Source: Candidatus Multivorans sp. (GTDB lineage Bacteria; Acidobacteriota; Thermoanaerobaculia; Multivoradales; Multivoraceae). Taken from it: a stretch of 64,000 nt of DNA. Location: contig OZ251997.1 of the NCBI GenBank assembly GCA_965247095.1, positions 407,949 through 471,948 on the forward strand, read 5' to 3'. The position numbers and the translations under genes were made by a program. The notes under the pieces are model-generated. The model was given only the letters and a program-made list of their open reading frames with translations. It ran no database searches and was not told the origin of the DNA. Positions 14,711-57,612 of the stretch are shown one piece after another (position 1 is the stretch's first letter; each line of letters starts with the position of its first letter).

Positions 14711-14913
14711 GTCCAGTGGTCCTTTCGGTTGTAGAGGGTTGGGGGTAGCCAGGTGGTGGAGGCCGCTGTCCGCGGCTCTCGAGCCACCTATGGACCAAGA
14801 CGGAATCGGCGCGGCTCCGTTCGTCTCGGTCACTTCGGTCCGAGCCGGCAGGGTCGTGTCCTTGCCTTGCTGTGAGCATGAGCCGCCCGACCGGAGGAGC
14901 CCGGGAAGCGGGC

Positions 14914-15603: not shown

Positions 15604-15700
15604 GCCGGAGCTCGGTCACCGGTCGCCTGGGCCGGCCAGAGGTAGCCGTCCCCGACCCGTCCGAGGCCATGGCTCTCGATGACCGGTGTAGTGCCCGCCA
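15601..15700 (-). pseudogene. Relic 3' end of an ABC ATPase gene (duplication scar)
   Basis: Minus-strand translation ...TPVIESHGLGRVGDGYLWPAQATGDRAPA* matches C-terminus of the RND-ABC fusion protein (...PVEPTLEDGYLWLAQAARGRAPT*) and keeps the same ATGA stop/start junction with the following permease. Confidence 0.6.
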
Positions 15701-15761
15701 CGACCGAGTTGGGCGGTACAGCGACAGAGGGGCAGACACTCAAGACAAGTGGCGACTCCTG

Positions 15762-16451
15762 CTAGCGGCTGAGCATCTTCTCGCGACGCTCCGCGCGAGC
15801 GAAGGTCAGGGCGACGATGGCGGCGATGGTGAGCGCGATGCCGATGCGGTTCTGGATGGTCATGGCGAGCAACTGCTCGGCGTCGGCTCCTTTCACGGCG
15901 AGCGGGTTCCAGAACGGCGAGATGCGCAGGTGCCCGCCGAAGCCGGTCACAGAGCCGTTCAAGCCGAATAGCGCAATCGTGACCAAGGCACCGCTCACCT
16001 CGCTGCGGAACAGCGTGGAGAAACCCATCGCCGCGGCTAGGTAGAAGCTGGCTCCTTGGCCAGCACCGTGGAGGGTCTGGACGACCGGAAACGCGGTGAA
16101 GAAGGCGAACGCCAGAACAGTCATCGGGATCAGGCTGCCAAGCAGGATCAGGCCTGCGGCGGTTAGTTTCCCCCACCAGACCCGATGGGCGCCGCCCGGG
16201 ACGGTGTAGGCGACTTCAAGGGTGCGCTCGTCGAGTTCGCCGGTGATGATCCGGCCGCCGAGAAACACAGCGAGGATCGCTACTGGCGCACCGATCAAGG
16301 TGTTCTGTGCAGCGGCGGGTTCGAAGCCGGGACGGCCGGTGAACAGCAACAGCACCGCCTGAAGGCCTAGCCAAGTCAGTGGCAGCAGAGGTAGCAGCCA
16401 GTATCTTGGCCCTCCGATCAGCACGGCGGAAAGACGGACAACGGTTCTCAT
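15762..16451 (-). CDS. ABC-2 family transporter permease, paralog 2 of 3
   Basis: 229 aa multi-TM, paralogous to neighbours; ATG start overlapping relic stop. Confidence 0.7.
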   Translation of the reverse strand: MRTVVRLSAVLIGGPRYWLLPLLPLTWLGLQAVLLLFTGRPGFEPAAAQNTLIGAPVAILAVFLGGRIITGELDERTLEVAYTVPGGAHRVWWGKLTAAGLILLGSLIPMTVLAFAFFTAFPVVQTLHGAGQGASFYLAAAMGFSTLFRSEVSGALVTIALFGLNGSVTGFGGHLRISPFWNPLAVKGADAEQLLAMTIQNRIGIALTIAAIVALTFARAERREKMLSR

Positions 16452-16500
16452 TGCAGCTCTCCCCCGCGGGTTGCTTGGCCCGACCGGAGGTAGGTGTCTC
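16449..16500 (-). pseudogene. Second relic ABC-ATPase 3' end (duplication scar)
   Basis: C-terminus of the 116-aa ORF 16448..16798 reads ...PPRDTYLRSGQATRGGELQ*, resembling ...EDGYLWLAQAARGRAPT*; same ATGA junction with permease start. Confidence 0.45.
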
Positions 16501-16895
16501 TAGGCGGCGCGACGCCTCCTTCGCCTTGCATGTAGAGGGTGGTGGGCGGAGGGACTGGGGTGCAGGTACTCCGGTTCAGCATGTCCCGTCGCGACGAGCG
16601 GCCATCCTGCCGACGATCCAGAGAGCTGGCAGCGAGAAGAGGGATGCGATGGCGACGAACAGGACCGGAGAACCGCCGACGAGGGCCAACAGCCGACCGC
16701 TCAACCAGCTTCGCCCGAAGGCGCTGCCCGGGGCAGGTCGCAGCGGCCGGTAGGGGCGGCTTTGTAGGTCCATGAACGTCGCCATCGAGTCCTTCCAAAC
16801 AGGAGCGTGATGCGCTATCCGCCCGCCTCTTTCCGGGGCCGAAGCCGGCACCCGCAATCAGAGAGTCTCATCGAGCGAGACGGCGCCGTTGTTGG

Positions 16896-17198
16896 CTAGA
16901 CACACACAGCGTCCGCGAGGAACGGACCGGCCAACCCGGCAGCGTGCATGAGCCCCCTGCCCGTGTAGATCCCTACGAAGACAAAGGCCTCGCCCGTCGT
17001 CTCAAAAGCAGCAGTGCAAGCTCCGGACCACCAAGCTGCTCCCATCACGCCGACCATCTCGGCATCCGCGAGTTGTTCGAGCCCGGGATTGTCGACGCCC
17101 GGATAGTCGCCCGCCACGGCCGTGACAGGCGGTTCTGCGAAGGCGCCGCCGACACTCAGTACAAACGCTGCCACTGCGATAGATAGAACTTTCTTCAT
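16896..17198 (-). CDS. Small secreted protein (~100 aa), paralog of 14414-14710; two Cys, C-terminal ...CV
   Basis: ATG 17198 (MKKVLSIAVAAFVLSVGGAFAEPP) with GAAAGGA RBS; upstream in-frame ATG at 17222 also possible; signal peptide; paralogous alignment with the other small protein. Confidence 0.55.
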   Translation of the reverse strand: MKKVLSIAVAAFVLSVGGAFAEPPVTAVAGDYPGVDNPGLEQLADAEMVGVMGAAWWSGACTAAFETTGEAFVFVGIYTGRGLMHAAGLAGPFLADAVCV

Positions 17199-17457
17199 GA
17201 TTCTTGTTCCTTTCCGTTTCATGGGTTCTTGTTGCCGTCGACCCCTTCGGAGAGGCCGACGACGCTGGTAGACGGGAAGGTCCTGCGGAAGCCGAGGAGG
17301 CTTCGCAGGTCCACCGCCGCGCAGCGCCTTACGGCGTGCAGGGACTGTGGACCGCCTATAGACCTATGACGGAATTCGGAGCGGCTTTTTCTGGCGAGGA
17401 CCCTGAGAGGGGGCTGGGTGGCAGTGGCTGCGTGTCAGGTCGAGGGCGGAACCCGGC

Positions 17458-18150
17458 TCAGCCGCCGAGCATCTTCTCGCGGCGTTCGGCGCGGGCGAAT
17501 GTCAGGGCGACGATGGCGGCGATCGCGAGGGCGATGCCGATCCGGTTCTGGACGCTCATCGCGAGCATCTGGTCGGCGTCGGCTCGGTCCACCGAGAGGG
17601 GGTTCCAGAACGGCGAGATGCGGAGGGGGTTTTCGCCGAAGCCGGTGATCAGGCCGTTGAGGCCAAGGAGGCCGGTCGTGGTCAGGGCGCCGGCCACCTC
17701 GCTGCGGAACAGGGTGGCGAGCCCCATGGCTGCAACCAGGTAGAAGGTGACGCCCTGGGCCGCGCCGTAGAGACTCTGGAAGACGGGGAAGGAGGTGAAG
17801 AAGGCGAACGTGACGGACGCCATCAAGGCCAGACTGGCGAGTAGCAACAGGCCGGCTGCGGCGAGCTTGCCGAGCCAGACGCGGTGAGCGCCGCCGGGTA
17901 CGGTGTAGGCGATCTCAAGAGAGCGCTGGTCGAGTTCGCCGGTGATGATCCGCCCGCCCAGGAACACGGCGAGAACGGCCACCGGCATTCCGATCAGTGT
18001 GTTCTGGGCGGCGTCACGTTCGAAGCCCGTCGCGGCGCCGGCCAACAGCAGGATCGCCTGCACGGCTAGCCACAGTAGCGGCAGCAGGGGCAGCAACCAG
18101 TAGCGCCGCCCTGCCAGCAGCACCGCGGACAGACGCAGCACGGCGATCAC
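17458..18150 (-). CDS. ABC-2 family transporter permease, paralog 1 of 3 (cognate of the fused ATPase upstream)
   Basis: 230 aa multi-TM; GTG start overlapping the stop of the RND-ABC fusion ORF (GTGA). Confidence 0.7.
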   Translation of the reverse strand: MIAVLRLSAVLLAGRRYWLLPLLPLLWLAVQAILLLAGAATGFERDAAQNTLIGMPVAVLAVFLGGRIITGELDQRSLEIAYTVPGGAHRVWLGKLAAAGLLLLASLALMASVTFAFFTSFPVFQSLYGAAQGVTFYLVAAMGLATLFRSEVAGALTTTGLLGLNGLITGFGENPLRISPFWNPLSVDRADADQMLAMSVQNRIGIALAIAAIVALTFARAERREKMLGG

Positions 18151-21100
18151 GTCGGGGCTCTGCCGCGCGCCGCCTGCGCCAGCCAGAGGTAGCCGTCCTC
18201 GAGCGTGGGTTCGACTGGTTCGGCCCGCCGATCGGGGCGGTCGGCAGCCAGCACGCGCAGGCGGCTGCTGCCGTCGGGTTCCGGTTGGCGATCGGCGAGC
18301 ACGGACGCCTCGGGAAGCTCCGGCTCCTCATCTCCGGGCGCCGTCCATGACCAGACACGGCCTTCGGCCTCTCGGGACAGCGCCGCCGGCTCGCCGTCGA
18401 ACACCATGCGGCCGCCGGTGAGCACCAGTACGCGCTCGCAGGCCACCGCCACGTCCTCGACGACGTGGGTCGAGAAGAGGACGATGCGGTCCTTGGCCAG
18501 GCGCGAGAGCAGGTTGCGGAAGCGGACGCGCTCGCGTGGGTCGAGGCCGACGGTCGGCTCGTCGACGACGATGATCGGCGGCAGGCGCAACAGCGTGCGG
18601 GCCACCGCGACCCGCTGCCGCATGCCGCCGGAGTAGCCGCCGATCGGTTCGTCCGCTCGCTCGTCGAGTCCGACTTCGCGCAGCAGGGAGCCGATGCGCT
18701 CCGCTCGCTCCGACGCCTCGATCTGGTAGAGCGCGGCGTAGTACTCGAGGTACTGCCGGGCCGTCAGGCGCGCCGGCAGGCCGGCGTCCTGCGGCAGGTA
18801 GCCGACGTAGCGGGCCAGCCGTTTCCGTATCCTGAGCAGGGGCACGCCGCCCAGCGTGATCCGGCCGCGGGTCGAATCCAGAATGCCGGTCACCTGGCGG
18901 AGCAGGGTCGTCTTGCCCGCGCCGTTCGGACCCAGCACGCCGACCATGCCCCGCTCGACATCGAAGCTCACCGCGGCCAGCGCCTTCACCGTGTCGATCG
19001 GCAGATCGAGACCGAAGATCCGGGTTGCTGCCGCCCGCCAGAGGCGGATCAACATGCCGCGCCAGCCACGGGTGCGCCGGCGGCGGGTTGACCGCTGCTC
19101 CCGGCGCACCGTCTCGAGACGGGCCGTGCGACGTCCGAGTTGGATCAGAAGGATGATCGTGGAGAGGATGGCCACGACGATGAACCCGCCCACCGCGGGC
19201 TCGGTGGCGAGAGCCGGACCGACCAGGCCCGCGAGAAGCGCCCAGGGCAGCAGGGCGGACAGAACGCCCTCGATGCCGCCCGGCTCGACTCGACCAAGCG
19301 CGTCGGCGCGGCCGCGGGCACGCCGGACCTCGGTCAGCAGCCGGGAAGCGATCAGCAGTGCGGCAATCCAGGCGCCCAGTTGGATCAGGTCGGCACGGAA
19401 CCTCATGGCCAGGGCGACCGCGCCGGCGAGCAACAGGAGCAAGGGCAGGATGCGGTCCCGCGCGTCGGCGGGGTGGAAGGCCTGACCGCCGCGGTCGACG
19501 ACCTGCTTGGCGAAGTCGGTCGATGCCCGCAGCGCCCGGCGCACCGGCCCCGGCCGGCCGTAGGTCTTGCGCAGGTGACGGACCACCAGCCGGGGCGGTC
19601 CGGCGTCGGCCTCCGGTTCCGGTGTCGGCGGTTTTGGCACCAGCCACACGGTGAGCCCGAGCAGGGCGCCGGCGATGAGCACGGTCGTCGTGACCTGCCA
19701 GAACATGGACTCGATCACGCCGAGAACGAACAACGGGGCGGTGGCCGCGATCACCGCGCCGAGCCAGGTCAGAACCACCCAGGGTCCGACGCGGCTGAAG
19801 ACATCGTCCAGGCGCCGCAGAAAGACGTAGCCGACCGGGATGACGAGCAGCGTGAGCACGGTCGAGGTCAGAAGACCGCCGATCACCAGGGTCGCGAAGG
19901 GCGGCCAGAGCTCGTTCTCGCGTCCCGTGGCGATGGCCAGCGGTGCGAGCGCCGCGATCGTCGTCGCGCTGGTCATCAACACCGGACGCGCGCGCTCGCG
20001 AACCGCGGCCAGGGCGGCGGCGCCCGCACTCCAGCCGGCGCCGAGTACCCGTTGCTGCATCCGGTCGACGAGCAGAACCGCCGGGTTCACCGCCAGCCCG
20101 AGGAGGACGAGCGCCCCGAGCAGCGCCATCGGATCGAGCCCGATGCCGGAGAACATCAGCGCCCACAGCGAGCCGAGCAGGGCGAGCGGCAGCGCGAGCA
20201 GAACAAGGATCGGCAGGGTCATCGACTCGAACGCCACCGCCAGAACCAGGAACACGAGCATCACGACCGGCGCCAGGACGCGCCGGAACCAGCTCGTGTT
20301 CTCGTCCGAGCGGTCGAGCTCGATTGTCGTTCCGGGCGGACGGTGGATGCTGGCAAGCGCCTCGTCCAGGTTGCGGTCGAATTCCAGCCGCGCCGGTCCG
20401 CCGCTTGGTACGTCGGACGAGACGCTGTAGATGACCTCCCGCTCGCGGCGGCCGTTGTGGTGTGTGATCACCGGGGAAGCCGGCGCGCGGCGCACCTGCG
20501 CCAAGGCGGCTACTGGCAGGACGCCAGCGCTCGTGGAGACGCGGAGCCGGGACAGGCCGCTCAGCGACGCCTCGCGCTCGAAACTGCTGCCGTCCACGAC
20601 CCGGGCGTCACTGGGTCGGTTCTCCGCGCGCTGGACGACGATCGGAAGCTCACGGCCGTTCGGAAGCGGGAAGCCGCTGTTGATGCTCGTACCCTCACGG
20701 CCGGCGAGACTCAGCATCGGCAGCACATCGTCGAGCAGGACGCCGAAGGTGTCGAAGGCGCGACGGTTCGGGCTGACGTGGATCTCGTCGGGGCCGGGCC
20801 GTGAGGCTAGAAAGGCGCCGCTGATCCCCTCGATCTCCTTGAGCCGCTCGGCGACCTCCGTGGCCAGACCGGTCAACTGGTCGTTGTCGTTTCCGGACAG
20901 GATGACCCGTTTCGGCCCTGCCCCGAGCAACTCCTGGGCGCCGCCGCCACCGCCGGGACCGCCGCCCCGACCGCCCGGGCCTTCGCCTTCGCCGGGTCGC
21001 AGAATCTCGGTACCGGCGCGCCGGTTCGCGGCCCGGCGTACGAGCTGACGGATCCGCGCCGCGGTCAGTTCCTCGGGGCGGTCCTCGAGTGCCTCGAGGT

Positions 21101-33632: not shown

Positions 33633-34628
33633 TCATAGGTTGTAAGCGTGCCGAATCGCCGCCGCCGCCAGCAGACGCGCCGGATCAAACAACGGCCGTC
33701 CCGCCGCCTCCGCTCCGCCCAGGGCCAGCGGAATCTCCGTACAACCCGCCACCAGCACATCGACGCCGGCGTCCCCGACCAGCCTCCCGGCCGCCTCCTC
33801 CAGCAGCACCCGTGCCCGCGGCGACCCGCCGTCCGTCTTGATCCCGCCGCCTCGATGCCGTCCATTGACCCAGGGCCCGTAGATCGCCTCCATGACCGCG
33901 CGGAGCTGCAGCGCTTCGCCGTCCTCCAGGTCGAGCGGGCTCACCGCCCGAAGGCCACGGGCCTCCAGCGGATCGTGGTAGAGCCGCGAGCGCAGCGTGC
34001 CGGACGTGGCGAGCAGGCCCACCCGCCCGCCAGGCGCGATGCGCTCCGCCTCGTCGGCCGTGACCTCGACCAGGCTGAGGATCGGCAGCGGGCTCTCCTC
34101 GCGCAGTGGCGCCATCCGTGCGCCCGATGACGGGCGCACGGACTGGTTCGCGGGTGACGCGGGACCGCGCCACCCGGGTGTCATCCATGCGCCCGATGAC
34201 GGGCCCATGGACTGGTTCGCGGCTGGCGCGGTCCCGCGCCACCCGGGTGTCATCCATGCGCCCGATGACGGGCCCATGGACTGGTTCGCGGCTGGCGCGG
34301 TCCCGCGCCACCCGGGTTCCAGGAACAGGTGCGCTGTATTGCAGGCGACCACGGCGAAGTCCGCTCCGGCCCGTCGCACCCGTTCCAGGCTCCGAAGCAG
34401 CACCGGGCTCGGGTCCTCCGCGTGGCCCAGGAAGGCTTCGGTCCGGTCGGGGGTCTGCGGAATGCTGGACAGCACCCATTCCGGGAAGTCCTGATCCGCC
34501 GTGGCGCCAGTCAACTCACGCGCCGCCTCCAGCAGCTTCCGCTCGAAGTCGAGATGGGCGAAGGGTCCGAGGCCCCCGACGATCCCTATCAGACGCTGCT
34601 GCCGCATGCGTTGAGTGGTCCTCGGCAT
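33633..34628 (-). CDS. Asp/Glu/hydantoin racemase-family protein carrying an in-frame 3x tandem repeat insertion
   Basis: LIGIVGGLGPFAH... and ...VDVLVAGCTEIPL racemase motifs with the two catalytic Cys regions; central 71-aa insert PGWRGTAPAANQSMGPSSGAWMT x3. Confidence 0.65.
   Translation of the reverse strand: MPRTTQRMRQQRLIGIVGGLGPFAHLDFERKLLEAARELTGATADQDFPEWVLSSIPQTPDRTEAFLGHAEDPSPVLLRSLERVRRAGADFAVVACNTAHLFLEPGWRGTAPAANQSMGPSSGAWMTPGWRGTAPAANQSMGPSSGAWMTPGWRGPASPANQSVRPSSGARMAPLREESPLPILSLVEVTADEAERIAPGGRVGLLATSGTLRSRLYHDPLEARGLRAVSPLDLEDGEALQLRAVMEAIYGPWVNGRHRGGGIKTDGGSPRARVLLEEAAGRLVGDAGVDVLVAGCTEIPLALGGAEAAGRPLFDPARLLAAAAIRHAYNL
34114..34328. repeat. Three tandem 69-bp copies of a palindromic repeat element (family A), in-frame within racemase gene
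   Basis: Units start at 34114, 34183, 34252 (CATCC[AG]TGCGCCCGATGACGGGC..TGGACTGGTTCGCGG.TGGCGCGG[GA/TC]CCGCGCCACCCGGGT); central hairpin TGGCGCGG..CCGCGCCA with loop flipped between copies. Confidence 0.8.
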
Positions 34629-37101: not shown

Positions 37102-38487
37102 ATGCGGGCGTTCGCCGCGATTCTGCTGGCGTTCGCGGTTCCGCTTGCGGCCGCGGCCGCTGCCGACGGCGAGACCCTGTCGCCGGACCTCCGGACCCGC
37201 ACGGACGGCATCGACTGGCCGGGCTTCCTCGGACCGAACCGCGACTCGAAGTCGCCCGAGACGGGAATCCGCACCGACTGGGAGGCCGATCCGCCGCCGC
37301 TGCTCTGGCACCTCGAACTCGGGGATGGCTACGCGGCGCCCTCGGTAGCCCGGGGGCGGCTGTTCTACTTCACCCGCGTCCGCGACCGGGTGCGGCTCGT
37401 CGCGGTGCGGGCCGACAACGGCGAGGAGCTCTGGCGCTCGGAGTACCGGACGGACTACGAGGACTACTACGGCTACGACGGCGGGCCGCGTACGGCGCCC
37501 CTCGCCTCTGGCCCACGGGTCTATGCGGTGGGCGCCGACGGCTTCCTCCGCTGCCACCGGGTCGTCGACGGCGCCGTGCTGTGGGAGCGTGATGTGCACG
37601 CCGAGTACGGCGTCCAGCAGAACTTCTTCGGCGTCGCCAGCTCGCCCTGGATCGAGGACGATCTGCTGATCGTGACGGTCGGCGGAAGTCCGCCGGGTTC
37701 GCCCGGCGTTCACAGCGGTCGCTTGAAGCCCAACGGCACCGCCCTGGTCGCGTTCGACAAGCGGACGGGCGAGGAGCGCTACCGCCTCGGTAACGATCTG
37801 GCCAGCTACGCGAGCCCGGTGGTCAGGGACATCGACGGCAAGCGGCGCGGCTTCCACTTCGCTCGCTCCGGCCTGATCGTCTTCGACCCGAAGGACGGCC
37901 GGGAACTCAACGCCTTCGGTTGGCGGGCGCGCCGGCTGACCAGCGTGAACGCCGCGAACCCGCTGGTCGTCGGCGCCCGGGTGCTGCTCACGGAGTCGTA
38001 CGAGAAGGGGGCGGTCCTGCTCACGTACAACGAGGGTCCGGAAGGCGACGCCAGCGGCTTGCTACCGGTGTGGCAGGACGGCCCGCGCAACCAGGCGATC
38101 GCGGCGCACTGGAACACACCGGTCCACCACGAGGGGGTGGTCTACGTCTCGAGCGGCGAGAAGTCGCCGAGCGCGGAACTGCGAGCCGTGGATCTGTTGA
38201 CCGGCGACGTTCACTGGAGCCAGCCGCGCCTCGCGCGCACCCAGTTGCTCCACGTCGACGGCCATCTCGTGGTGCAGAGCGAGGTCGGCGATCTGCTGCT
38301 CGTCCGCGCGACCGCGGAGAGCTACCAGCAGGTCGCGCACCTGCGCCTTCAGGCGGAGATCGACGATCGGACCGTCGATCTGCTGCGCTATCCGGCCTGG
38401 GCGGCGCCGGTGCTGGCTCACGGTGTGCTCTACGTGCGCGGCTCGGACCGTCTGGCCGCCCTCGAACTCATCCCGCCGCCGGAGTAG
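37102..38487 (+). CDS. Secreted PQQ-like beta-propeller repeat protein (BamB-like fold)
   Basis: Signal peptide MRAFAAILLAFAVPLAAAAAA (alternative GTG 37081); repeated ...G.LY.....G.L.A.D..TG...W propeller blades. Confidence 0.6.
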   Translation: MRAFAAILLAFAVPLAAAAAADGETLSPDLRTRTDGIDWPGFLGPNRDSKSPETGIRTDWEADPPPLLWHLELGDGYAAPSVARGRLFYFTRVRDRVRLVAVRADNGEELWRSEYRTDYEDYYGYDGGPRTAPLASGPRVYAVGADGFLRCHRVVDGAVLWERDVHAEYGVQQNFFGVASSPWIEDDLLIVTVGGSPPGSPGVHSGRLKPNGTALVAFDKRTGEERYRLGNDLASYASPVVRDIDGKRRGFHFARSGLIVFDPKDGRELNAFGWRARRLTSVNAANPLVVGARVLLTESYEKGAVLLTYNEGPEGDASGLLPVWQDGPRNQAIAAHWNTPVHHEGVVYVSSGEKSPSAELRAVDLLTGDVHWSQPRLARTQLLHVDGHLVVQSEVGDLLLVRATAESYQQVAHLRLQAEIDDRTVDLLRYPAWAAPVLAHGVLYVRGSDRLAALELIPPPE

Positions 38488-38491
38488 AGCC

Positions 38492-41400
38492 ATGGCCCGC
38501 GGCTCGATCCTCGTTTCCTGTTCGGCGGCCCGACGGCTGGCGGCGGCCGCCGGGTGGCTGCGCAAACGCCGGCACGGCGAGGAGGAGACGCTGCTGCTTG
38601 CGGCCTCGCGCGGCGCCGCCGACGACCTGGTCCGGGGCATGTCGGAGACAGGCCGGGGGATGCTGGGCGTTCATCGCGCGTCGCTCGACCAGTGGGCGTT
38701 GCAGACCGCGGCGCTTGAGTTGGCCGCCCGTGGACTGCGGCCGGTCACGCCGCTCGGAACCGAGGCGATGGCGGCGCGGGTCGCCCGCCTTGCCGCGGCG
38801 CAAGGAGAACTGGAGCGTTTGGAGCCGGTTGCCGACCTTCCCGGTTTCGCCCGCTCCCTGGCGGGGACGATCGGTGAGCTGCGCGCGGCAGGCGTTTCGC
38901 CCGGCGACCTGCTGAAGGACCACGGAACGCGCGACCTGGGCCGGCTGGTTCACCGATTCGACGAGGAGATGACCCGTTTCGGGTTGGCGGATCCGGCGAC
39001 CGTGCTTCGCTCCGCCGTCGTGGCAGTGGACCGGGAGCAGGTCGCTGTTCCCAAGGGATCGCTGTGGCTCGATCTGCCGCTTCGAAGCGCTAGCCAGGTC
39101 GCACTCTTGCGGGCGCTCGCCGCGCGCAGCCGGGACGTGCTCGCGACCGTGGCCGCGGGCGACCACGAGACGCTGGAGTGGCTGGGGTCGCTGCTCGGCG
39201 ACGGGGCGGTGATCGATCTCGACCGGGAGGAAGCGGTCGACGCCGGGACTGCGGGCGGTCGTCGGCTGGCTCGGGTCCAGCGCTTCGTCTTTGAGACCGG
39301 AGCGGATGCGTCTTCGCCGCTTGACGGTACGCCAGGTGCGGGCGAGACGCCCGCGTTCCATCCGCGCGCCCGCGGACGGGCGCGCGGAGTGGTTCCCGGG
39401 TGGCGCGGGACCGCGCCACCCGGGTTCCCAGGCAGTGGAGCAGACGTGCCGGCCGGCTCTTCGGTCGACCTGTTCTCGGCGGCCGGCGAGGGCCAGGAGT
39501 GCGTCGAAATCGCCCGGCGCATCCAGCGCGCCGCCGCCGGGGGGCTTGCCTTCGATCGCATGGCGATCTTGCTTCGCCAGCCGGCCGCCTACCTGCCCCT
39601 GGTGGAGGACGCGCTCGGCCGCGCCGGCATCCCCGCCTACGTCACCCGGGGCACGTTGCGCCCCAATCCGGCCGGCCGCGCCTTCCTTGCCCTGCTGGCC
39701 TGCGCGGGGGAGAGACTCTCGGCAAGCCGCTTCGCCGAGTACCTGTCCCTCGGTCAGACCCCCGAACCGGCGAAGGGCGGCAGACCGCCAAAGCGCGAGG
39801 TGCCCTGGGTCGAGCCGGCGGGCGATCAACTCGTCATCAAGTCGCCGGAGCTCTCTCGAGCGCGGGCGTCTCGCCCGCATTCTGCGACCGACGGCGCCGC
39901 GGCCACCGACGCTCGCGAAACCCAGGAAGAGGCAGCGCCCGCCGGCGCGCTGCGCGTCCCCTCCCAGTGGGAGCGCTTGCTGGTCGACGCCGCCGTGGTC
40001 GGCGGCGCCGAACGCTGGCAGAAGCGGCTCGCGGGCCTTGGCGCGGAGTTCCGGCTGCAACTGCGCGAGGCCGGGGACGAGGACGAAGGCCGCAGGGCTT
40101 ACCTGGAGCGGCAGATCCGGCGCCTGGAGACGCTCCAGACGTTCGCGCTGCCCCTGATCGAGTTTCTCGACGCCCTGCCCGAGCACGCGGACTGGGGCTG
40201 GTGGCTCGAGCGTCTGCAGGAGCTGGCGACGATGGCGCTGCGCCGGCCGGAGACCGTGCTCGAGGTGCTTGCCGAGCTCCGACCGCTGGCGCAGGTCGAC
40301 GAGGTGGGCTTGGCCGAGGTGGAGCGGATTCTGGGCGAGCGCCTGCGCTTCAGCCGCAGCCGGCCGCCGAAGCGGCGGTTCGGCCGGGTCTTTGTCGGTG
40401 GCGTCGAGGAGGCGGCGGGACGGAGCTTCGAGGTCGTGTTCGTGCCGGGTCTGGCCGAGGGCGTGTTTCCGCGGCGGGCGAAGGAGGATCCGCTGCTGCT
40501 CGACGAACGTCGCCGGACGCTGCGAGAGGCGGGCTACCGGTTGACCGAGGATCTGGGGCGCACCCGGCGGGAGCAACTGCTGCTTCGCCTCGCCATCGGC
40601 GCCGCGAGTCGCTGGCTGGTCGTGTCGTATCCCCGGGTCGACCTGGTGCAGGGGCGCGCCCGGGTGCCGTCGCTGTACGCGCTCGATGTGCTGCGGGGCG
40701 CCGAGGGGCGCCTGCCGGACCTCGACGCGCTCGGCCGGCGTGCCGCGGCCGCCGGCGCCGCGGTGGTCGGCTGGCCGGCGCCGGCCGAACCCGAGGACGC
40801 GGTCGACGAGGCCGAGTTCGATCTCGCCCTGCTGCGGCCGCTCCTGGTCCCGGGCGCCCCGGTCGCGGAGCGCAGAGGACGGGCGCGCTTCCTCCTCGAG
40901 TCGAACCCGCACCTCAAGCGTGCCCTGGAGGCGCGCGGCCGGCGCTGGCGGCGACCCTGGTTCCCGGTCGACGGCCTCGTGGACGCGAGCGCCGAAGCCA
41001 GGGAAACGCTGGCCGCCCAGCGCATCGGCGCGCGCTCCTACTCGCCGACCGCGCTCCAGAACTTCGCCGCCTGCCCCTACCGCTTCTTCCTCCAGGCGGT
41101 GCTCTACCTCAGGCCCCGCGAGGAGCTGGTCCAGCTCGAGCAGATGGACCCGATGACCCGGGGCAGCATCTTCCACGAGATCCAGTTCCGCCTGTTCGGC
41201 GCCTTGGAGGCGGCGGACCTGCTGCCGGTGGCGCCGAGTTGCCTGGCGAGGGTCTTCGAACTGCTCGACGAGGTGCTCGCGCGGAGCGAACGCGACTACC
41301 GGGAGGAACTCGCGCCGCCGATCGAGCGCGTCTGGAGGGCGGAGTTCGAGGGCCTGCGGGCCGACCTGCGCGGCTGGTTGCGGCAGGTGGCGGACGAGGG

Positions 41401-41953
41401 CGGCCAGTGGAAGCCCATTCACGCCGAACTCTCCTTCGGTCTCAGGCGGTCCGGGGACCGGGATCCGCGCAGCAAGCGGGCGCCGGCGGAGGTGCTCGAC
41501 GGGGCGCTGCTGCGCGGCTCGATCGACCTCGTCGAGGAGGACGCGGGCGGTCGGCTGCGGGTGACCGACCACAAGACCGGTCGCGCCGTTCACGCCGGCG
41601 GGGGCCTGGTGATCGGCGGCGGCAAGGTGCTGCAGCCGGTGCTCTACAGCCTGGCCGCGGAGCACGTGCTCGAGCGGGACGTGGTCTCGGGGCGGCTCTT
41701 CTACTGCACCCAGCGGGGTGGCTACAGCACGGTCGCCGTGCCGCTCGACGAGCGGAGCCGCGGCGCCGCCCGCCGGCTGCTGGACGCGGTGGACGGGGCG
41801 CTGGAGGACGGTTTCCTGCCCGCGGCGCCGGCGAAGGACGAGTGCCGGTACTGCGACTACCGGCGGGTGTGCGGCCCCTACGAAGAGTTGCGGGTCCAGC
41901 GCAAGGACGCGACGCGGCTCCACGATCTGCAGGCGATTCGGAGCGAGCGGTGA
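38492..41953 (+). CDS. addB: AddB-like helicase-nuclease complex subunit B (PD-(D/E)XK nuclease with Fe-S cysteine cluster)
   Basis: C-terminal RecB-type nuclease motif IDLVEEDAGGRLRVTDHKTG and Cys cluster (FAACPYRF ... ECRYCDYRRVC); ATG 38492 after upstream stop; GTGA overlap with downstream UvrD-type subunit; contains in-frame repeat copy at 39359-39432. Confidence 0.7.
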   Translation: MARGSILVSCSAARRLAAAAGWLRKRRHGEEETLLLAASRGAADDLVRGMSETGRGMLGVHRASLDQWALQTAALELAARGLRPVTPLGTEAMAARVARLAAAQGELERLEPVADLPGFARSLAGTIGELRAAGVSPGDLLKDHGTRDLGRLVHRFDEEMTRFGLADPATVLRSAVVAVDREQVAVPKGSLWLDLPLRSASQVALLRALAARSRDVLATVAAGDHETLEWLGSLLGDGAVIDLDREEAVDAGTAGGRRLARVQRFVFETGADASSPLDGTPGAGETPAFHPRARGRARGVVPGWRGTAPPGFPGSGADVPAGSSVDLFSAAGEGQECVEIARRIQRAAAGGLAFDRMAILLRQPAAYLPLVEDALGRAGIPAYVTRGTLRPNPAGRAFLALLACAGERLSASRFAEYLSLGQTPEPAKGGRPPKREVPWVEPAGDQLVIKSPELSRARASRPHSATDGAAATDARETQEEAAPAGALRVPSQWERLLVDAAVVGGAERWQKRLAGLGAEFRLQLREAGDEDEGRRAYLERQIRRLETLQTFALPLIEFLDALPEHADWGWWLERLQELATMALRRPETVLEVLAELRPLAQVDEVGLAEVERILGERLRFSRSRPPKRRFGRVFVGGVEEAAGRSFEVVFVPGLAEGVFPRRAKEDPLLLDERRRTLREAGYRLTEDLGRTRREQLLLRLAIGAASRWLVVSYPRVDLVQGRARVPSLYALDVLRGAEGRLPDLDALGRRAAAAGAAVVGWPAPAEPEDAVDEAEFDLALLRPLLVPGAPVAERRGRARFLLESNPHLKRALEARGRRWRRPWFPVDGLVDASAEARETLAAQRIGARSYSPTALQNFAACPYRFFLQAVLYLRPREELVQLEQMDPMTRGSIFHEIQFRLFGALEAADLLPVAPSCLARVFELLDEVLARSERDYREELAPPIERVWRAEFEGLRADLRGWLRQVADEGGQWKPIHAELSFGLRRSGDRDPRSKRAPAEVLDGALLRGSIDLVEEDAGGRLRVTDHKTGRAVHAGGGLVIGGGKVLQPVLYSLAAEHVLERDVVSGRLFYCTQRGGYSTVAVPLDERSRGAARRLLDAVDGALEDGFLPAAPAKDECRYCDYRRVCGPYEELRVQRKDATRLHDLQAIRSER
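39359..39432. repeat. Family A palindromic repeat copy, in-frame inside addB
   Basis: CATCCGCGCGCCCGCGGACGGGCGCGCGGAGTGGTTCCCGGGTGGCGCGGGACCGCGCCACCCGGGTTCCCAGG; encodes ...HPRARGRARGVVPGWRGTAPPGFPG. Confidence 0.75.
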
Positions 41954-49094: not shown

Positions 49095-49145
49095 GCGGCC
49101 TGCTGTTCAGGTTCCTGGGAACGCGGGCATCCTGCCCGCATCCGG
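49095..49145. repeat. Hairpin repeat element (family B: GGGAACGCGGGCATC[CT]TGCCCGCATC) upstream of hisS
   Basis: TTCCTGGGAACGCGGGCATCCTGCCCGCATCCGGG; same element occurs twice at 56497-56592. Confidence 0.6.
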
Positions 49146-49226
49146 GCCGAGGCCCGGCTCGGCTCGCGCTCGAAGCTCCGTTCAGAGCGCCCCCGCATTG
49201 CGGCTGGATGGATACGATCGGCCCCC

Positions 49227-53507: not shown

Positions 53508-54499
53508 GCGTGGAAACCGGCGGTAGCGGCGCGGCTACGCCGGCGGTCGAGGGCGAAGCGCGCGAATCGCTGGAATCCGGAAGGGGCGGCCTGTGGAACC
53601 GGCTGCGGCGGGGCCTCGGCCGTACCCGGAAGGGACTGGTGGGCCGGATCAGCACCGCGCTTGGAGGCGCCGCGCGGATCGATGAGGACGTGCTGGAGCG
53701 GATCGAGGAGACCCTGATCGAGTCGGACCTCGGCGTCGAGACCTCGCTCGAGCTCGTCGAACGGCTGCGTCAGGCGGGAGATTCGGGGCCGATCGCCGCC
53801 GGCGACGAGTTCGCCCTACGGCAACTGCTGGTCGACGAAGTGGCGGTGCTGCTGCTCGACGCACCGCCTGCCGCGTTGCCGGCGACCCCGCGCATCACGC
53901 TGATGGTGGGCGTCAACGGTTCGGGCAAGACGACCTCCGCCGCCAAGCTGGCGCAGGCGTCCCTGGCCCGGGGCGAGAAGGTCCTGTTCGCGGCCGGCGA
54001 CACCTTTCGTGCCGCGGCCGCGGAGCAGCTCGAGGTCTGGGGCGAGCGGCTGGGGATCGAGGTCGTCCGTCGCCCGTCGGGCGGCGACCCGGCGGCGCTC
54101 GTCTTTGACGCCGTTCAGGCGGCCGGGGCGCGCGGCGTCGATCATCTGATCGTCGACACGGCGGGCCGCCTCCACACCCGCGGTCAACTGATGGACGAGC
54201 TGTCGAAGGTCCACCGGGTCACCCGGCGCGCGGCCGGCGACGCCTGGAACCTCTTCACCCTCCTGGTGGTCGATGCCGGCAACGGCCACAACGCGCTGGT
54301 GCAGGCGCGCGAGTTCGGGGCGACGGTCCCGATCGACGCCGTGTTCCTGGCCAAGCTCGACGGCACGGCAAAGGGCGGCATGGCGGTGGCGATCGCCCGC
54401 GATCTGCGCCTGCCGGTCGCCTACCTGGGTGTGGGCGAGGGGGTGGAGGACATCGTCGACTACAAGCCGCGGTCCTTTGCGGCCGCCCTGTTCGGGTGA
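53504..54499 (+). CDS. ftsY: Signal recognition particle receptor FtsY
   Basis: SRP GTPase motifs GVNGSGKTT, DTFRAAA, DTAGR, AKLDGTAKGG; GTG overlapping aroB stop. Confidence 0.9.
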   Translation: MSVETGGSGAATPAVEGEARESLESGRGGLWNRLRRGLGRTRKGLVGRISTALGGAARIDEDVLERIEETLIESDLGVETSLELVERLRQAGDSGPIAAGDEFALRQLLVDEVAVLLLDAPPAALPATPRITLMVGVNGSGKTTSAAKLAQASLARGEKVLFAAGDTFRAAAAEQLEVWGERLGIEVVRRPSGGDPAALVFDAVQAAGARGVDHLIVDTAGRLHTRGQLMDELSKVHRVTRRAAGDAWNLFTLLVVDAGNGHNALVQAREFGATVPIDAVFLAKLDGTAKGGMAVAIARDLRLPVAYLGVGEGVEDIVDYKPRSFAAALFG

Positions 54500-55683
54500 G
54501 CGCCGTGGGCGCTGAGACCGCCGGACGTTTCGACGACGCCGATCGGCGGGCGATGGGGCGGGCCCTGGCGCTGGCGCGGCGGGGCCGCCTGACCACGGCG
54601 CCGAACCCCATGGTGGGCGCGGTGGTCACGAAGAGCGGCGAGATCGTCGGCGCCGGCTGGCACCGTCGGGCCGGCGGCGAGCACGCGGAGGCGATGGCGC
54701 TCGACGCCGCCGGTGGCCGCGCCCGTGGCGGCACGATCTACGTCACGCTCGAGCCGTGCACCCATCACGGCCGGACCCCGCCCTGCGCGGGACGGATCCT
54801 GGAATCGGGGGTTGAGCGCGTGGTCTTCGCCCACCGCGATCCGAACCCCGAGGTGATCGGCGGCGGTGGCGAACGGCTGCGGGCCGCGGGCCTCCGGGTC
54901 GAGAGCGGGCTCCTGGCCGAGCAGGCGGTCGAGATGAATGTGCCCTTCCTGACCCGCGTCCTTCACGAGCGGCCCGCCGTGACCCTGAAGTGGGCGATGA
55001 GCCTGGACGGCCGCATCGCGACGGCGACCGGCGACAGCCAGTGGATCTCGTCGCCGCGCGGCCGCCGTTGGGCGCTCGAACTGCGCGAGGAGCACCAGGC
55101 GATCGTGGTCGGCAGCGGCACCGCGCTGGCCGACGATCCGCGTCTCGACCGGCGACTGGGCCGGGCCGAGGGACCGATCGTGCGGGTGGTGCTCGATCGG
55201 CGGTTGCGGCTATCCCCGGGGGCGCGGATGTTCGAGGTCGAGGGGCCGGTTGTCGTCTACACGGCGGCGCCGGAGGGCGGCGCGAACGAGGGCGCGGACG
55301 AGGGCGCGGTGGAATGGGCCCGGCGGCGAGACCGTCTACGTGATGCGGGCGCCGATGTCGTCGTGATCGAGGCCGTGGCGCCGCCCGCGGTGCTGGCGGA
55401 CCTGGCCGGGCGCGGCGTGTCGAACGTGCTCGTCGAGGGCGGTGCCGGGGTGCTGGAGGCGTTTGCGTCCTCGGGTGTCTGGGATCGGGCCGCGGTGTGC
55501 TGCGCGCCCCTCCTGATCGGCGGCGCGGCGGCCCTGGGCCCGATCGGCGGCGCCGGCGCGGAGAAGTTGGCTGACGCCTGGCGCCTCGATCGGCTGCGGG
55601 TTCTAAGGCGTGGCGCGGACGTGATTCTTGTAGGGTACCGGCAGGGATGTATACCGGAATTGTCACGGAGTGTGGCCGGGTAG
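54496..55683 (+). CDS. ribD: Bifunctional diaminohydroxyphosphoribosylaminopyrimidine deaminase / 5-amino-6-(5-phosphoribosylamino)uracil reductase
   Basis: CMP/dCMP deaminase zinc motif HAEAMAL...LEPCTHHGRTPPCA, then reductase domain; GTG overlapping ftsY stop (alternative ATG 54553). Confidence 0.85.
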   Translation: MSAVGAETAGRFDDADRRAMGRALALARRGRLTTAPNPMVGAVVTKSGEIVGAGWHRRAGGEHAEAMALDAAGGRARGGTIYVTLEPCTHHGRTPPCAGRILESGVERVVFAHRDPNPEVIGGGGERLRAAGLRVESGLLAEQAVEMNVPFLTRVLHERPAVTLKWAMSLDGRIATATGDSQWISSPRGRRWALELREEHQAIVVGSGTALADDPRLDRRLGRAEGPIVRVVLDRRLRLSPGARMFEVEGPVVVYTAAPEGGANEGADEGAVEWARRRDRLRDAGADVVVIEAVAPPAVLADLAGRGVSNVLVEGGAGVLEAFASSGVWDRAAVCCAPLLIGGAAALGPIGGAGAEKLADAWRLDRLRVLRRGADVILVGYRQGCIPELSRSVAG

Positions 55684-56396
55684 TCGAGGCCCCCAAAGCC
55701 CCCAAAGCCCCGACGCGCCACGGTGCCATCCGACCGCCCGAAGACGGGCGCTCGGACTGGGTCGCGTGTGGCGCGAGCACGCGCCCCACGGGTTCCCGCA
55801 TGGTGATCGGGCACTCGGCGGAGCTTGCGTCGCGGCTGGAGCCGGGCGCCAGCCTCTCGGTCGCCGGGGTCTGCCTGACCGTGGTGGAGCAGGGCGGCGC
55901 GAACGGAGTGTCGGGTAACGGCGCAGAGGGCGCCATCCCGGCCTGGTCCGCCTTCGATCTGTCTCCCGAAACGCTCAGCCGCACGACTCTTGGCGCTCTG
56001 GTTGACGGCGATGAGGTGAACCTGGAGCCGCCGCTTTCTGCCGGCGACCCCCTTGGCGGCCACTGGGTCCAGGGCCACGTCGACACGACGACCCGGGTGG
56101 CGAAAGTCGAGGAACTCGGAGACAACCGGGTCATCACGTTCGAAGTCCCCGCCGAGCTCGAGAACGGCCTCGTCCTCAAGGGCAGCGTGACGATCGACGG
56201 CGTCAGCCTGACGATCGCGGCGCTGGACGAAGAAACCTTCGACGTCGCCCTGATTCCGCACACGCTCGAGGTCACCACCCTCTCGGAGCTGAAGCCCGGC
56301 GACCCGGTCAACGTCGAGGGCGACGTCCTCGCCCGGTACGTCCAGAAGTCCGTCGAGGCGGCCGTCGCCGCCGCCCTCGAGTCGGCCCGGCGTTGA
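55647..56396 (+). CDS. ribE: Riboflavin synthase alpha subunit with N-terminal repeat-derived insertion
   Basis: MYTGIV...VAGVCLTV...GDEVNLE...GGHWVQGHVD...DGVSLTIA...IPHTLEVTTL two-lumazine-binding-repeat architecture; ~25-35 extra residues (APKAPKAPTRHGAIRPPEDGRSDWVACGASTRPTGS) versus canonical RibE. Confidence 0.8.
   Translation: MYTGIVTECGRVVEAPKAPKAPTRHGAIRPPEDGRSDWVACGASTRPTGSRMVIGHSAELASRLEPGASLSVAGVCLTVVEQGGANGVSGNGAEGAIPAWSAFDLSPETLSRTTLGALVDGDEVNLEPPLSAGDPLGGHWVQGHVDTTTRVAKVEELGDNRVITFEVPAELENGLVLKGSVTIDGVSLTIAALDEETFDVALIPHTLEVTTLSELKPGDPVNVEGDVLARYVQKSVEAAVAAALESARR
55737..55812. repeat. Family A palindromic repeat copy, in-frame inside ribE 5' region
   Basis: CATCCGACCGCCCGAAGACGGGCGCTCGGACTGGGTCGCGTGTGGCGCGAGCACGCGCCCCACGGGTTCCCGCATGG; preceded by tandem CCCCCAAAG x2. 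Confidence 0.7.
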
Positions 56397-56426: not shown

Positions 56427-56592
56427 CCTGGGAGCCCGGGTGGCGCCCCGCGCCACCCGTGAACCACTCCGTGCGCCCGTCTTCGGGCGCGCGGATGGCA
56501 CGCGGGCATCTTGCCGGCATCTGCGTGAGGGCCGTCCGCGACATGAGCCGTCCGTCCTGGGAACGCGGGCATCTTGCCCGCATCTGGGTCAG
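56427..56592. repeat. Composite intergenic repeat: inverted family A copy followed by two family B hairpin copies
   Basis: CCTGGGAGCCCGGGTGGCGCCCCGCGCCACCCGTGAACCACTCCGTGCGCCCGTCTTCGGGCGCGCGGATGG (56427-56498), then ACGCGGGCATCTTGCCGGCATCTG and GGGAACGCGGGCATCTTGCCCGCATCTGG. Confidence 0.7.
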
Positions 56593-56604
56593 GATCGTCG
56601 CCCC

Positions 56605-57612
56605 GTGACTCCACTCAACCTCCGCGAACACGTCGCCGAACCGGCGAACCTCTGGATCCGTCACAGCTTCCCCCGTTGGCCCGCGGCCGGCAGCGGCAAG
56701 CTCTGGTGCGACTTCGCCACCGGCGGCCTGCCGCCATCGACCGTCGGGCCCTTGCCGGCCGCCGCCGAGGCCGCCGAAGGGGTGCACTCGGTGACCGATG
56801 TTGTGTACGTTCCCCCGCTACCGGCGGATCACGAGCACCTCCGTGCGCGCATCGTCGAGGCCGCGGCTGGCGCCGGAGTGCCGCTCCTGATTCAAGTGGT
56901 GGCGAACATCCCGGTCGGCGGGTCGAGCCTCGGCGAGCTGGCCGCGCCAAGACTTGCCGACCTGCCCCCCAACGCCGTCGTCGCAGTCGACCTCCTCGAC
57001 GCCCTGGTCCGCCACGCTGCCGCGCTGCGAAGCGAGTTCAGGGAGCGTCGGCAGCCTGGCCTCCCGTTCGAACCGCGTCCGCTGGCCGGCGCGACCGTCG
57101 TCTGGCCGCTCGTTGCCGACTGGACCGACCAGCCGGGCCTCCTGGCGCCGGCGATGGCCCGACTCGCTGCCGCCGGCGCCCGCCGCGTCGTACCGCGCGC
57201 GATGCAGCTCGGCGCCCGCGAGCGGCGCCTGCTCGCCGAACGCCTGCAATCCACCTGGCCCGAAGCCCTCGACGCCCTGTTTCACGGCGGCGATATACCA
57301 CCCGACGTCGCGGCGTTCCAACGCGCCGCCGAAGCCGCGGGTCTCCAGCCCCGCCTGCCCCGGCCCCTGCCCGTGCCGCCCCTGCCGCCCAGGCTCCGCC
57401 GCACGCGCGAACTCGCCGGCCACCTGATCGAACTCGGCGACGCCGCCGGCGCCGAGCGTCCCGTGTACTACCGTGCCGCCCGCTTCCTCGACCGCGGCGA
57501 AGTCGACATCGACGCCGCCGCCCGCGAAGGCAACCTGAGCGTCTTGCCCTGGCTGGAGGAACTGGCCAGGGTGGCCGTGGAGGAGTGGCTGGCTACGAAC
57601 CGCGGAAGCTAG
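56605..57612 (+). CDS. Hypothetical protein (335 aa)
   Basis: GTG start just after the repeat block (upstream 55 codons of the ORF are repeat-derived); Ala/Leu/Pro-rich but non-repetitive; no motif recognised. Confidence 0.4.
   Translation: MTPLNLREHVAEPANLWIRHSFPRWPAAGSGKLWCDFATGGLPPSTVGPLPAAAEAAEGVHSVTDVVYVPPLPADHEHLRARIVEAAAGAGVPLLIQVVANIPVGGSSLGELAAPRLADLPPNAVVAVDLLDALVRHAAALRSEFRERRQPGLPFEPRPLAGATVVWPLVADWTDQPGLLAPAMARLAAAGARRVVPRAMQLGARERRLLAERLQSTWPEALDALFHGGDIPPDVAAFQRAAEAAGLQPRLPRPLPVPPLPPRLRRTRELAGHLIELGDAAGAERPVYYRAARFLDRGEVDIDAAAREGNLSVLPWLEELARVAVEEWLATNRGS

Follow-up and report, generated by a model that had tools for sequence, protein, structure and literature searches.

The question raised by this locus is how a riboflavin synthase gene, ribE, came to carry a piece of a repeat close to its 5′ end, and whether the enzyme can live with the peptide that the repeat adds. 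The gene lies in a 64-kb stretch of 'Candidatus Multivorans' DNA (hereafter the window), with the following features.

54496..55683, + strand: ribD (deaminase/reductase), upstream of ribE, from Pfam dCMP_cyt_deam_1 and RibD_C
55647..56396, + strand: ribE (riboflavin synthase) coding sequence, from the ORF list, 249 aa
55689..55711, + strand: 9-nt tandem duplication GCCCCCAAA x2.6, found by TRF, adding PKA to the loop that holds the repeat
55722..55790, + strand: 69-nt repeat unit in frame in ribE, codons 26-48, read as GAIRPPEDGRSDWVACGASTRPT, delimited by an exact 69-column gap against empty orthologues

Our preferred reading, to which we would give a probability of roughly 85%, is that one 69-nt, two-hairpin unit of a dispersed repeat inserted in frame in ribE and is tolerated as a flexible loop. 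A unit of a REP/MITE-like family of 'Candidatus Multivorans' (Thermoanaerobaculia, Acidobacteriota) would have entered the gene between His25 and Gly (CAC/GGT, the slash marking the site). As the inserted length is a multiple of three, no frameshift would have arisen, and tolerance would have been eased by the G+C-rich element being stop-free in five of its six frames. As the insertion falls on the turn of the first β-hairpin in the N-terminal barrel, the 23 added residues would form a flexible surface loop and leave the enzyme presumably active. The copy would be gained or lost as an exact unit and, where it is kept in the Multivorans clade, its nucleotides and hairpins are conserved.

That the host gene encodes riboflavin synthase, as the original prediction held, is indicated by Pfam Lum_binding (PF00677, two stretches, E=8e-41) and by the Foldseek match to E. 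coli RibE (1i8d_A, TM 0.93), with 4e0f and 1kzl also among the fold matches. Indirect support for the prediction that the protein converts 6,7-dimethyl-8-ribityllumazine to riboflavin by dismutation comes from the pN/pS of ribE (0.15-0.30) and from the conserved ribD-ribE operon context. Like canonical RibE/RibC (E. coli 1I8D, Brucella 4E0F, S. pombe 1KZL), it combines two Lum_binding barrels with a C-terminal helix, and it shares with them M(F/Y)TGIV, GxSxxxxGVCLTV, GGHxVQGH and DGVSLT. The general RibE motifs (N-terminal MFTGIV, GxSxxxxGxCLTV, GGHxxxGH and DGxSLT) are likewise present and align with the PDB sequences. In line with the claim that the frame and all downstream motifs are intact, G67, S69, G74-V79 (GVCLTV), G137/G138/H139, H144, G185-T189 (GVSLT) and P204/H205/T206 do not vary in alignments of 25 and of 80 sequences; at position 2, the subclade of the window has Tyr instead of Phe. 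The window protein differs from canonical RibE/RibC by about 28 additional residues in the β1-β2 turn (23 from the repeat and 3 from the 9-nt duplication) and by a second, lineage-specific, G/A-rich loop of 14 residues after VVEQG. A 100% identical protein (P0123) is encoded on a 4.62-Mb MAG contig. The ribD-ribE operon context is conserved across related loci, in all of which the ribD stop lies inside ribE (by 37 nt in the window). Two short RibE calls (P0025, 198 aa; P0048, 190 aa) were considered as candidates for disruptive insertions and rejected, as their DNA encodes an MFTGIV N-terminus and has an empty site; both calls are artefacts of the gene caller, which the overlap with ribD misled.

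The 69-column gap is defined by four empty-site orthologues (L001, L002, L006 and L119), and the copy that fills it in the window matches the profile of the repeat family with E=6e-16 (nhmmer), its boundaries being ambiguous by a 3-nt GGT found at both junctions. Relative to its nearest insert-free orthologues (P0003-P0006, 223 aa), the window RibE is longer by 26 aa, namely the 23 residues of the unit plus PKA. The estimate of 25-35 extra residues in the original prediction was therefore right in size, though the string that it quoted also takes in native loop residues. The mini-tandem that it had seen beside the repeat proved to be a duplication of its own: the PKA triplet is missing from L005, L117, L118 and the closest alleles of 245-246 aa, and is an independent 9-nt slippage event, unrelated to the 69-nt repeat, in the same permissive loop. 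Since close relatives have an empty site, the insert is no conserved lineage-specific loop, and on this point, too, the prediction stands. In the AF2 model of the window RibE (overall pLDDT 86), residues ~15-49 are coil with pLDDT about 58-61, flanked by strands 8-14 and 50-56 at the turn of the first β-hairpin, which is where the insert had been placed, between the first β-strand and the substrate-binding segment. For RibE, the model supports a surface loop compatible with the fold.

The origin of the insert in a repeat family had also been anticipated, and the 69 nt match three further places in the window:

34097..34320, + strand: three tandem 69-nt units in a racemase gene, from the repeat search
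39343..39428, + strand: one repeat unit in an AddB-like PD-(D/E)XK nuclease/helicase gene (38423-41953), from Pfam PDDEXK_1
56439..56523, - strand: inverted intergenic copy just after the ribE stop, from the repeat search and nhmmer

A 27-nt core pattern of the repeat has four matches in the window against 0.00 expected by chance. The inverted copy, which the repeat search delimits at 56447-56523, is 87% complementary to the intragenic one over 53 nt, and it has orthologues at L019, L005, L118, L001 and L119. In the Asp/Glu racemase gene (33633-34628, - strand), the units are read in frame as PGWRGTAPAANQSMGPSSGAWMT x3 straight after ACNTAHLFLE, breaking Pfam Asp_Glu_race into two stretches; relatives that are at least 95% identical have zero or one unit where the window has three, and one allele retains an 'AP' deletion footprint. 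The AddB-like gene reads its unit in a third reading frame, and the consensus, which lacks a stop in five of six frames, is read in at least four frames across host proteins. Hosts with an in-frame copy confirmed by Pfam are the racemase, the PD-(D/E)XK nuclease, a GltD-like protein, Lhr, PurH and an amidase, with the Lhr copy being orthologous in two species. Beyond the original prediction, the ribE insert is exactly one 69-nt unit, is polymorphic, has in-frame counterparts in two more genes of the window and bears signs of nucleotide-level constraint.

The family occupies at least 106 stretches in genome contigs, nearly all of them from Ca. Multivorans/Thermoanaerobaculia MAGs; its hosts belong to a soil/sediment group of Acidobacteria. 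Among the matches listed there are at least 142 arrays, located mostly at gene ends or between genes and in a minority of cases inside genes. Classed crudely, 64 of the 142 have one coding flank, 29 lie between genes, 24 in non-coding sequence and 7 at a locus edge, with 11 genic and in frame and 7 in the same phase with a stop. In tandem arrays, the period is exactly 69 nt. We also considered whether a length of 69 nt renders the family frame-neutral by nature, and rejected the idea, given that units of ~66, 68 and 69 nt coexist; the unit length is a multiple of three in 39 of the 83 copies of the three main length classes (as measured by regular expression). This heterogeneity implies that in-frame copies are a selected subset rather than the outcome of a built-in property. 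Searches returned no Rfam family anywhere in the 64-kb window, and no relevant literature on Ca. Multivorans or on repeat insertions in riboflavin synthase.

Filled and empty ribE alleles are interleaved among close relatives. The filled allele occurs in at least seven complete MAG chromosomes, and the filled L117 and the empty L006 share 98.9% identity across 1.9 kb and differ by exactly these 69 nt, with a ribE pS of 0.056. Such alignments indicate that near-identical genomes acquire or shed the copy as one exact unit. Import of the insert together with its flanks by homologous recombination was rejected, as filled alleles differ within 10 nt of the insert. A serious contender for the history of the site, at somewhat less than even odds, is a single insertion in an ancestor shared by several Thermoanaerobaculia lineages, after which the unit would have been precisely deleted time and again; the empty state would then be derived and the filled window allele a retained ancestral one. 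An insert or its remnant is found at the identical codon in three RibE lineages (window/P0002, P0007/P0008 and P0040, the last retaining a degenerate 48 nt), the empty L006 falls within a group of filled alleles, and a deletion footprint is seen in the racemase. The ribE copies also have family-rare derived states in common (CCGACC...CTCGG, GGGT and a CCCCAC-like 3′ arm); however, the CCGACC/CTCGG variant of hairpin 1 marks a subfamily that is also present at the non-ribE loci L081, L016 and L012, and the shared states therefore need not imply common descent. In addition, ~7 or more independent precise losses would be needed on the RibE tree, the neighbour-joining trees are not robust, and ribE-only distances are mosaic.

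It is also possible, if on the doubtful side, that the unit inserted recurrently and site-specifically at the ribE site, with precise excision by the same machinery, such as a single-strand Y1 (IS200/RAYT-like) transposase. Re-entry at the same site would then be expected because the target, GCCAC/GGTTCC, mimics the 3′ end or junction of the element, CGCCACCC/GGGTTCC; the empty ribE site indeed resembles the conserved right end of the family. The interleaving of filled and empty states is consistent with such homing, as are the exact 69-nt period of the tandem arrays and the cleanness of the unit, which has a repeat of at most 3 nt and is identical between alleles whose flanks differ no more than 10 nt away. 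Against it, the GTAG/CGTC tag typical of RAYT-associated REPs is absent, the copy in Lhr and the intergenic one behave like orthologues of long standing, and a search of 106 repeat-bearing loci of 8 kb (524 ORFs, ~0.9 Mb) for a recurrent repeat-adjacent ORF family, such as a transposase or RAYT, found none that was convincing, a weak test.

Whatever its route into the gene, the ribE copy has the potential to form two hairpins:

55730..55755, + strand: hairpin 1 of the ribE unit, CCGACCGCCCG-AAGA-CGGGCGCTCGG, 10/11 pairs, from RNAfold
55766..55789, + strand: hairpin 2 of the ribE unit, GTGTGGCGCG-AGCA-CGCGCCCCAC, 9/10 pairs, from RNAfold

Across the family, the stems covary at positions 10-31 and 11-30 (hairpin 1) and at 45-66 and 46-65 (hairpin 2), and the Lhr copy carries a compensatory stem change from T-A to C-G. 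To our surprise, the repeat copy is better conserved than the synonymous sites of ribE itself. Five filled alleles differ at 0-2 positions per 69 nt, though the pS of ribE reaches 0.21; no synonymous change was seen in the insert against ~6.8 expected (with the tree length estimated by hand), and all three changes observed are nonsynonymous and either fall in the loop of hairpin 2 or make a G.U pair. The intergenic copy 3′ of ribE is likewise near-invariant across genomes. This nucleotide conservation with hairpins kept in the Multivorans clade suggests that what is constrained is the structure of the DNA or RNA and not the peptide. The insert that the P0007/P0008 clade carries at this site is degraded and no longer has its hairpins, which means that the nucleic-acid function, if any, is not universal. 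Instead of selection, the low divergence could reflect that the element alone has spread recently from lineage to lineage; allele differences within 10 nt on either side of the insert speak against ordinary homologous recombination, but a site-specific process would be compatible with them. As a cause of the conservation, gene conversion by copies elsewhere in the genome was considered and found unlikely, the ribE variant differing from the same-genome copies among the matches listed. A tentative and rather unlikely proposal is that intragenic hairpins are selected at the DNA/RNA level while precise 69-nt insertion and excision at junction-mimicking targets is carried out by site-specific machinery. 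The hairpins could, for instance, bind a protein, regulate how stable the mRNA is or how it is translated, or pair with the inverted 3′-UTR copy, the two copies bracketing ribE.

Returning to tolerance, the pN/pS of ribE is 0.15-0.30 (around 0.25) in filled alleles, the same as in empty ones, showing the filled gene to be under normal purifying selection. Together with the intact catalytic motifs, this suggests that ribE is functional and the filled enzyme probably still active. The alternatives proposed earlier had been a tolerated or surface-exposed loop and a second ribE elsewhere; with the predicted coil, the matching pN/pS and the occurrence of the filled allele in complete chromosomes, the former is favoured and a second ribE need not be invoked. 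It is very improbable that the insertion inactivated or crippled ribE, leaving it to decay or to be bypassed by a second riboflavin synthase or a start at Met52: the insert does lie in the N-barrel near the MFTGIV strand, which contributes to substrate binding, and Phe2 is replaced by Tyr in the subclade of the window, but besides the pN/pS values the 14 residues ahead of the insert are still conserved, all motifs are intact, at least 20 sequences of independent assemblies maintain the frame, many filled alleles have Val in place of Met52, and the 198-aa calls elsewhere have intact upstream frames. Just as improbable is an adaptive protein-level innovation, with the loop selected as a peptide for an interaction or regulation. 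In its favour, the peptide is near-invariant among filled Multivorans alleles; against it, the peptide changes only by amino acid replacement while its synonymous sites are frozen, is given no structure by AF2, can be missing from near-identical relatives, has been free to decay in the P0007/P0008 clade and stems from an element read in at least four different frames in other proteins.

Among known systems, the closest parallel is offered by the Rickettsia palindromic elements (RPEs), reportedly described by Ogata and co-workers in 2000 (Science 290:347) and 2002 (Genome Res 12:808). As summarised in PMC10969869, RPEs are short palindromic repeats dispersed in Rickettsia genomes and found in frame in unrelated housekeeping genes, to whose proteins they add peptide segments that neither fold nor function precludes. 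The 69-nt family also consists of hairpin repeats in frame in unrelated genes (here ribE, racemase, AddB-like, Lhr, GltD-like, PurH and amidase). However, RPEs reside in obligate intracellular, AT-rich Rickettsia, measure about 100-150 bp and contribute, per family, one conserved peptide in one frame, whereas our family resides in free-living Acidobacteriota of 69% G+C, is shorter and is read in several frames. It further differs in its in-frame tandem arrays (x3 in the racemase), mostly intergenic copies and insertion/deletion polymorphism between near-identical genomes, and we take it to be unrelated in sequence to RPE-1 to RPE-10, from which its length and frames set it apart and with no Rfam match.

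The REP/BIME/REPIN class comprises RAYT-associated repetitive extragenic palindromes of Proteobacteria (PMC3733652, PMC3686654), each palindrome being tagged on one side by the tetranucleotide GTAG or CGTC (PMC3733652). As in that class, our family is made of high-copy, G+C-rich imperfect palindromes of ~25 nt each, mostly just 3′ of genes, in either orientation and in clusters, with compensatory stem variation and orthologous copies conserved between species. Unlike REPs, it has no GTAG/CGTC at the foot of either hairpin upon inspection of the consensus (GACG is confined to the point where loop and stem of hairpin 1 meet), and a noticeable fraction of its copies is intragenic and translated; its two hairpins are mutually unrelated and thus do not form an inverted REP doublet. 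Bacterial MITEs (Correia, ERIC, BOX and others), whose in-frame fusions are reviewed in PMC10969869, are similarly small non-autonomous repeats that can sit inside ORFs and be translated. In contrast to them, the ends of the 69-nt unit (GTGCCATCC... and ...CCCGGGTTCC) are not inverted repeats, there is no clear target-site duplication (at most the GGT at the ribE junctions), the unit is below most MITE sizes, and it comes without a known parental IS.

The 69-nt family is thus a new RPE-like case in a new phylum. To our knowledge, in-frame palindromic repeats in housekeeping genes have so far been seen as peculiar to Rickettsia; in the present case, a much shorter and unrelated element behaves likewise in free-living, high-G+C Acidobacteriota. 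Repeat insertions account for over-long or truncated gene calls in Ca. Multivorans/Thermoanaerobaculia MAGs. The natural filled/empty pairs, such as ribE P0127 versus P0004 and the racemase with 0, 1 or 3 units, are of experimental use, as they make testable how proteins absorb random loops, whether intragenic repeats are selected as nucleic acid, and what mobilises them. If the hairpins are indeed selected at the DNA/RNA level and the unit is moved by site-specific machinery, intragenic repeat copies would be no inert passengers but would serve a function of the host or of the element.

The ORF at 55647-56396 (+) encodes a 249-aa riboflavin synthase with two Lum_binding domains (Pfam E=8e-41); ribD (54496-55683) lies directly 5′ of it with a 37-nt overlap, an arrangement kept in all related loci fetched. 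Homologue search and alignments revealed 23 residues that are missing from the nearest relatives (the 223-aa insert-free orthologues P0003-P0006), and the corresponding DNA-level gap spans 55722-55790, exactly 69 nt, and is flanked by CAC (His25) and GGT. Since GGT stands at both junctions, the ends of the insert can be placed only to within 3 nt. The unit contains hairpins at 55730-55755 and 55766-55789, with a folding energy of -45.7 kcal/mol. TRF additionally detected GCCCCCAAA repeated 2.6 times at 55689-55711, and the PKA triplet is a 9-nt duplication distinct from the 69-nt unit and, outside the genome of the window, present only in a few close alleles. The original prediction, in which a family A copy plus a mini-tandem encodes extra peptide near the RibE N-terminus, is thereby borne out by Pfam, the repeat search, the 27-nt core pattern and TRF. 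At residue 2 (55650-55652), elsewhere a near-invariant Phe (MFTGIV), the window and some members of its subclade have Tyr (MYTGIV). The shorter RibE annotations of several assemblies, 186-198 aa from an internal Val or Met (L114 1426-2097, L115 1426-2073 and similar entries), arise because the gene caller avoids the conserved overlap with ribD; the DNA encodes an intact full N-terminus.

The 27-nt core pattern has four matches in the window against 0.00 expected by chance, and six types of host gene with in-frame copies were verified by Pfam.

Family copies found by repeat search of the window, and further in-frame host genes
34097-34320: three tandem units, 69-nt spacing, in frame in an Asp/Glu racemase gene (33633-34628, minus strand), adding 69 residues
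39343-39428: one unit, in frame in a gene for an AddB-like PD-(D/E)XK helicase-nuclease (38423-41953, plus strand)
55711-55796: copy inside ribE
56447-56523: inverted copy
L014 5913-5979 and L047 1766-1832: orthologous in-frame unit in the Lhr helicase genes of two Ca. Multivorans species
GltD-like oxidoreductase: in-frame host gene (Pfam)
PurH: in-frame host gene (Pfam)
Amidase_3 protein: in-frame host gene (Pfam)

The racemase units directly follow the catalytic ACNTAH motif on its 3′ side. Host genes use at least four of the six element frames, and the family consensus is stop-free in five; the AddB-like copy is read in the sixth, where the consensus has TGA, and a loop variant in this copy, GCGGAC, eliminates the stop. 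According to a crude codon-phase classification, most copies lie at gene ends or between genes, with a minority in frame within genes, and, because unit lengths are mixed (~66, 68 and 69 nt), the in-frame copies are a filtered subset. Searching with a profile of the window copies detected 142 arrays in the window and 113 loci. The conserved core runs from ~3 nt 5′ of CATCC through GGGTTC, the left flank of ~8 nt being weaker, and both stems covary (pair types T-A/A-T/C-G and G-C/T-A/C-G). GTDB species genomes, scanned for exact matches to the pattern, yielded at least 106 stretches; among the matches listed, nearly all are in 'Candidatus Multivorans' or Thermoanaerobaculia MAGs, and a small number belong to Holophagales and Vicinamibacteraceae. 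The window had no match to a known family in Rfam. Separately, 14310-18202 contains three tandem paralogous segments (direct-repeat families D1, D2, D4 and D5; 65-90% identity; spacing 848 and ~1699 nt), which points to a small family of tandem genes.

Structure prediction, one of the checks that accompanied the original prediction, modelled the insert region as low-confidence coil within an otherwise confident fold. Built with an 80-sequence alignment, the AlphaFold2 model has a riboflavin-synthase fold (pLDDT 86, pTM 0.80) matching 1i8d, 4e0f and 1kzl (TM up to 0.93), the coil between strands 8-14 and 50-56 having pLDDT ~58-61 and <50 at residues 39-43. Motif residues are invariant in the alignments, and pN/pS among filled alleles (those with the unit) is 0.15-0.30 (0.04 for the closest pair), equal to that among empty ones. 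At least 20 sequences carry the filled allele, among them at least seven complete chromosomes from different samples. In other relatives the turn at the insert site varies in length (P0047 +4 aa, P0035 +1 aa), which also marks it as permissive. On these combined grounds we take the insert to be a tolerated surface loop, and infer that the insert-bearing RibE is enzymatically active. Another low-confidence loop, G/A-rich, lies directly after VVEQG (55896-55940, residues ~84-98); it is hypervariable, with 0 to ~40 extra residues in P0007, P0008, P0016, P0024, P0026, P0047 and P0073, and in some relatives contains internal duplications.

Five filled Multivorans-clade alleles differ at 0-2 positions within the 69 nt, against ribE synonymous divergence of up to 0.21. 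No synonymous change was found in the insert versus ~6.8 expected (Poisson P about 0.001), an expectation resting on a hand estimate of summed tree length; all three insert changes are nonsynonymous and either fall within the loop of hairpin 2 or produce a G.U pair. The Lhr inserts of L014 and L047 differ at 3 nt, two of which make up a compensatory T-A to C-G change in hairpin 1, and the residues bordering them are far more variable than the insert. The orthologous intergenic copy 3′ of ribE is likewise nearly invariant across genomes, its flanks having diverged. Together, the frozen synonymous sites, the Lhr compensation and the invariant intergenic copy point to the nucleic-acid structure, rather than the peptide, as the target of selection or of some homogenising process. 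The ribE copy (55723-55775) and the inverted 3′ UTR copy (56449-56501) are 87% complementary over 53 nt and 673 nt apart, and could form a long-range duplex bracketing nearly the whole ribE mRNA; among relatives, the two are present or absent independently of each other.

A 4,617,209-bp contig encodes proteins identical to the RibE and racemase of the window, and locus L019 (OZ250177.1) shares 97.4% identity with the window across ribD-ribE. The filled locus L117 and the empty L006 are 98.9% identical over 1.9 kb (ribE pS 0.056) and differ by exactly 69 nt. Because L006 nests among filled alleles in the ribD-ribE tree, precise loss appears the favoured explanation; distances from ribE alone are, however, mosaic, so recombination or re-insertion may instead lie behind the difference. 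Racemase unit number is 0, 1 (P0141) or 3 among proteins at least 95% identical, and the empty allele P0142 carries 'AP' from the element's end where ancestral 'ER' stood, which reads as a deletion footprint.

In a distant clade, P0007 and P0008 have an insert at this very codon of ribE; it has diverged, differing at 17 of 69 nt between these two, and has lost its hairpins (z about 0). P0040 retains a 48-nt remnant. Rare variants common to these ribE copies hint at common descent, and a single ancient insertion followed by many losses may account for them, although their hairpin-1 variant defines a subfamily also seen at other loci. Recurrent targeted insertion into the site may be responsible instead; the empty ribE target, GCCAC|GGTTCC, is similar to the right end of the element itself, CGCCACCC|GGGTTCC. 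Lateral spread of the element may equally account for the pattern.

A second short hairpin family (GGAACGCGGGCATCTTGCCCGCATC...) occurs at 49118-49157, 56497-56536 and 56560-56599, adjoining the family A copy 3′ of ribE; L117 and L006 have a unit of the second family in place of that copy, which suggests modular, BIME-like mosaics. The conserved gene that follows (56600-57612, +; 335-345 aa in relatives) matched no Pfam family; since the long window ORF from 56440 crosses the intergenic repeats, its true start is probably near 56600.

Rickettsia palindromic elements, described in PMC10969869 (citing Ogata 2000 and 2002) as in-frame palindromic repeats within housekeeping genes, represent functionally the same phenomenon, but this family differs from them in length, multi-frame use, host and sequence and is not a member. 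Copy number, location and stem covariation resemble those of REP/BIME, yet the GTAG/CGTC tag of REP elements (PMC3733652) is absent and no RAYT was identified among the repeat-bearing loci. Unlike MITEs, the family has neither terminal inverted repeats nor target-site duplication. A literature search on these organisms found nothing. A twist in this family is the combination of nucleotide-level constraint with precise gain and loss within genes.
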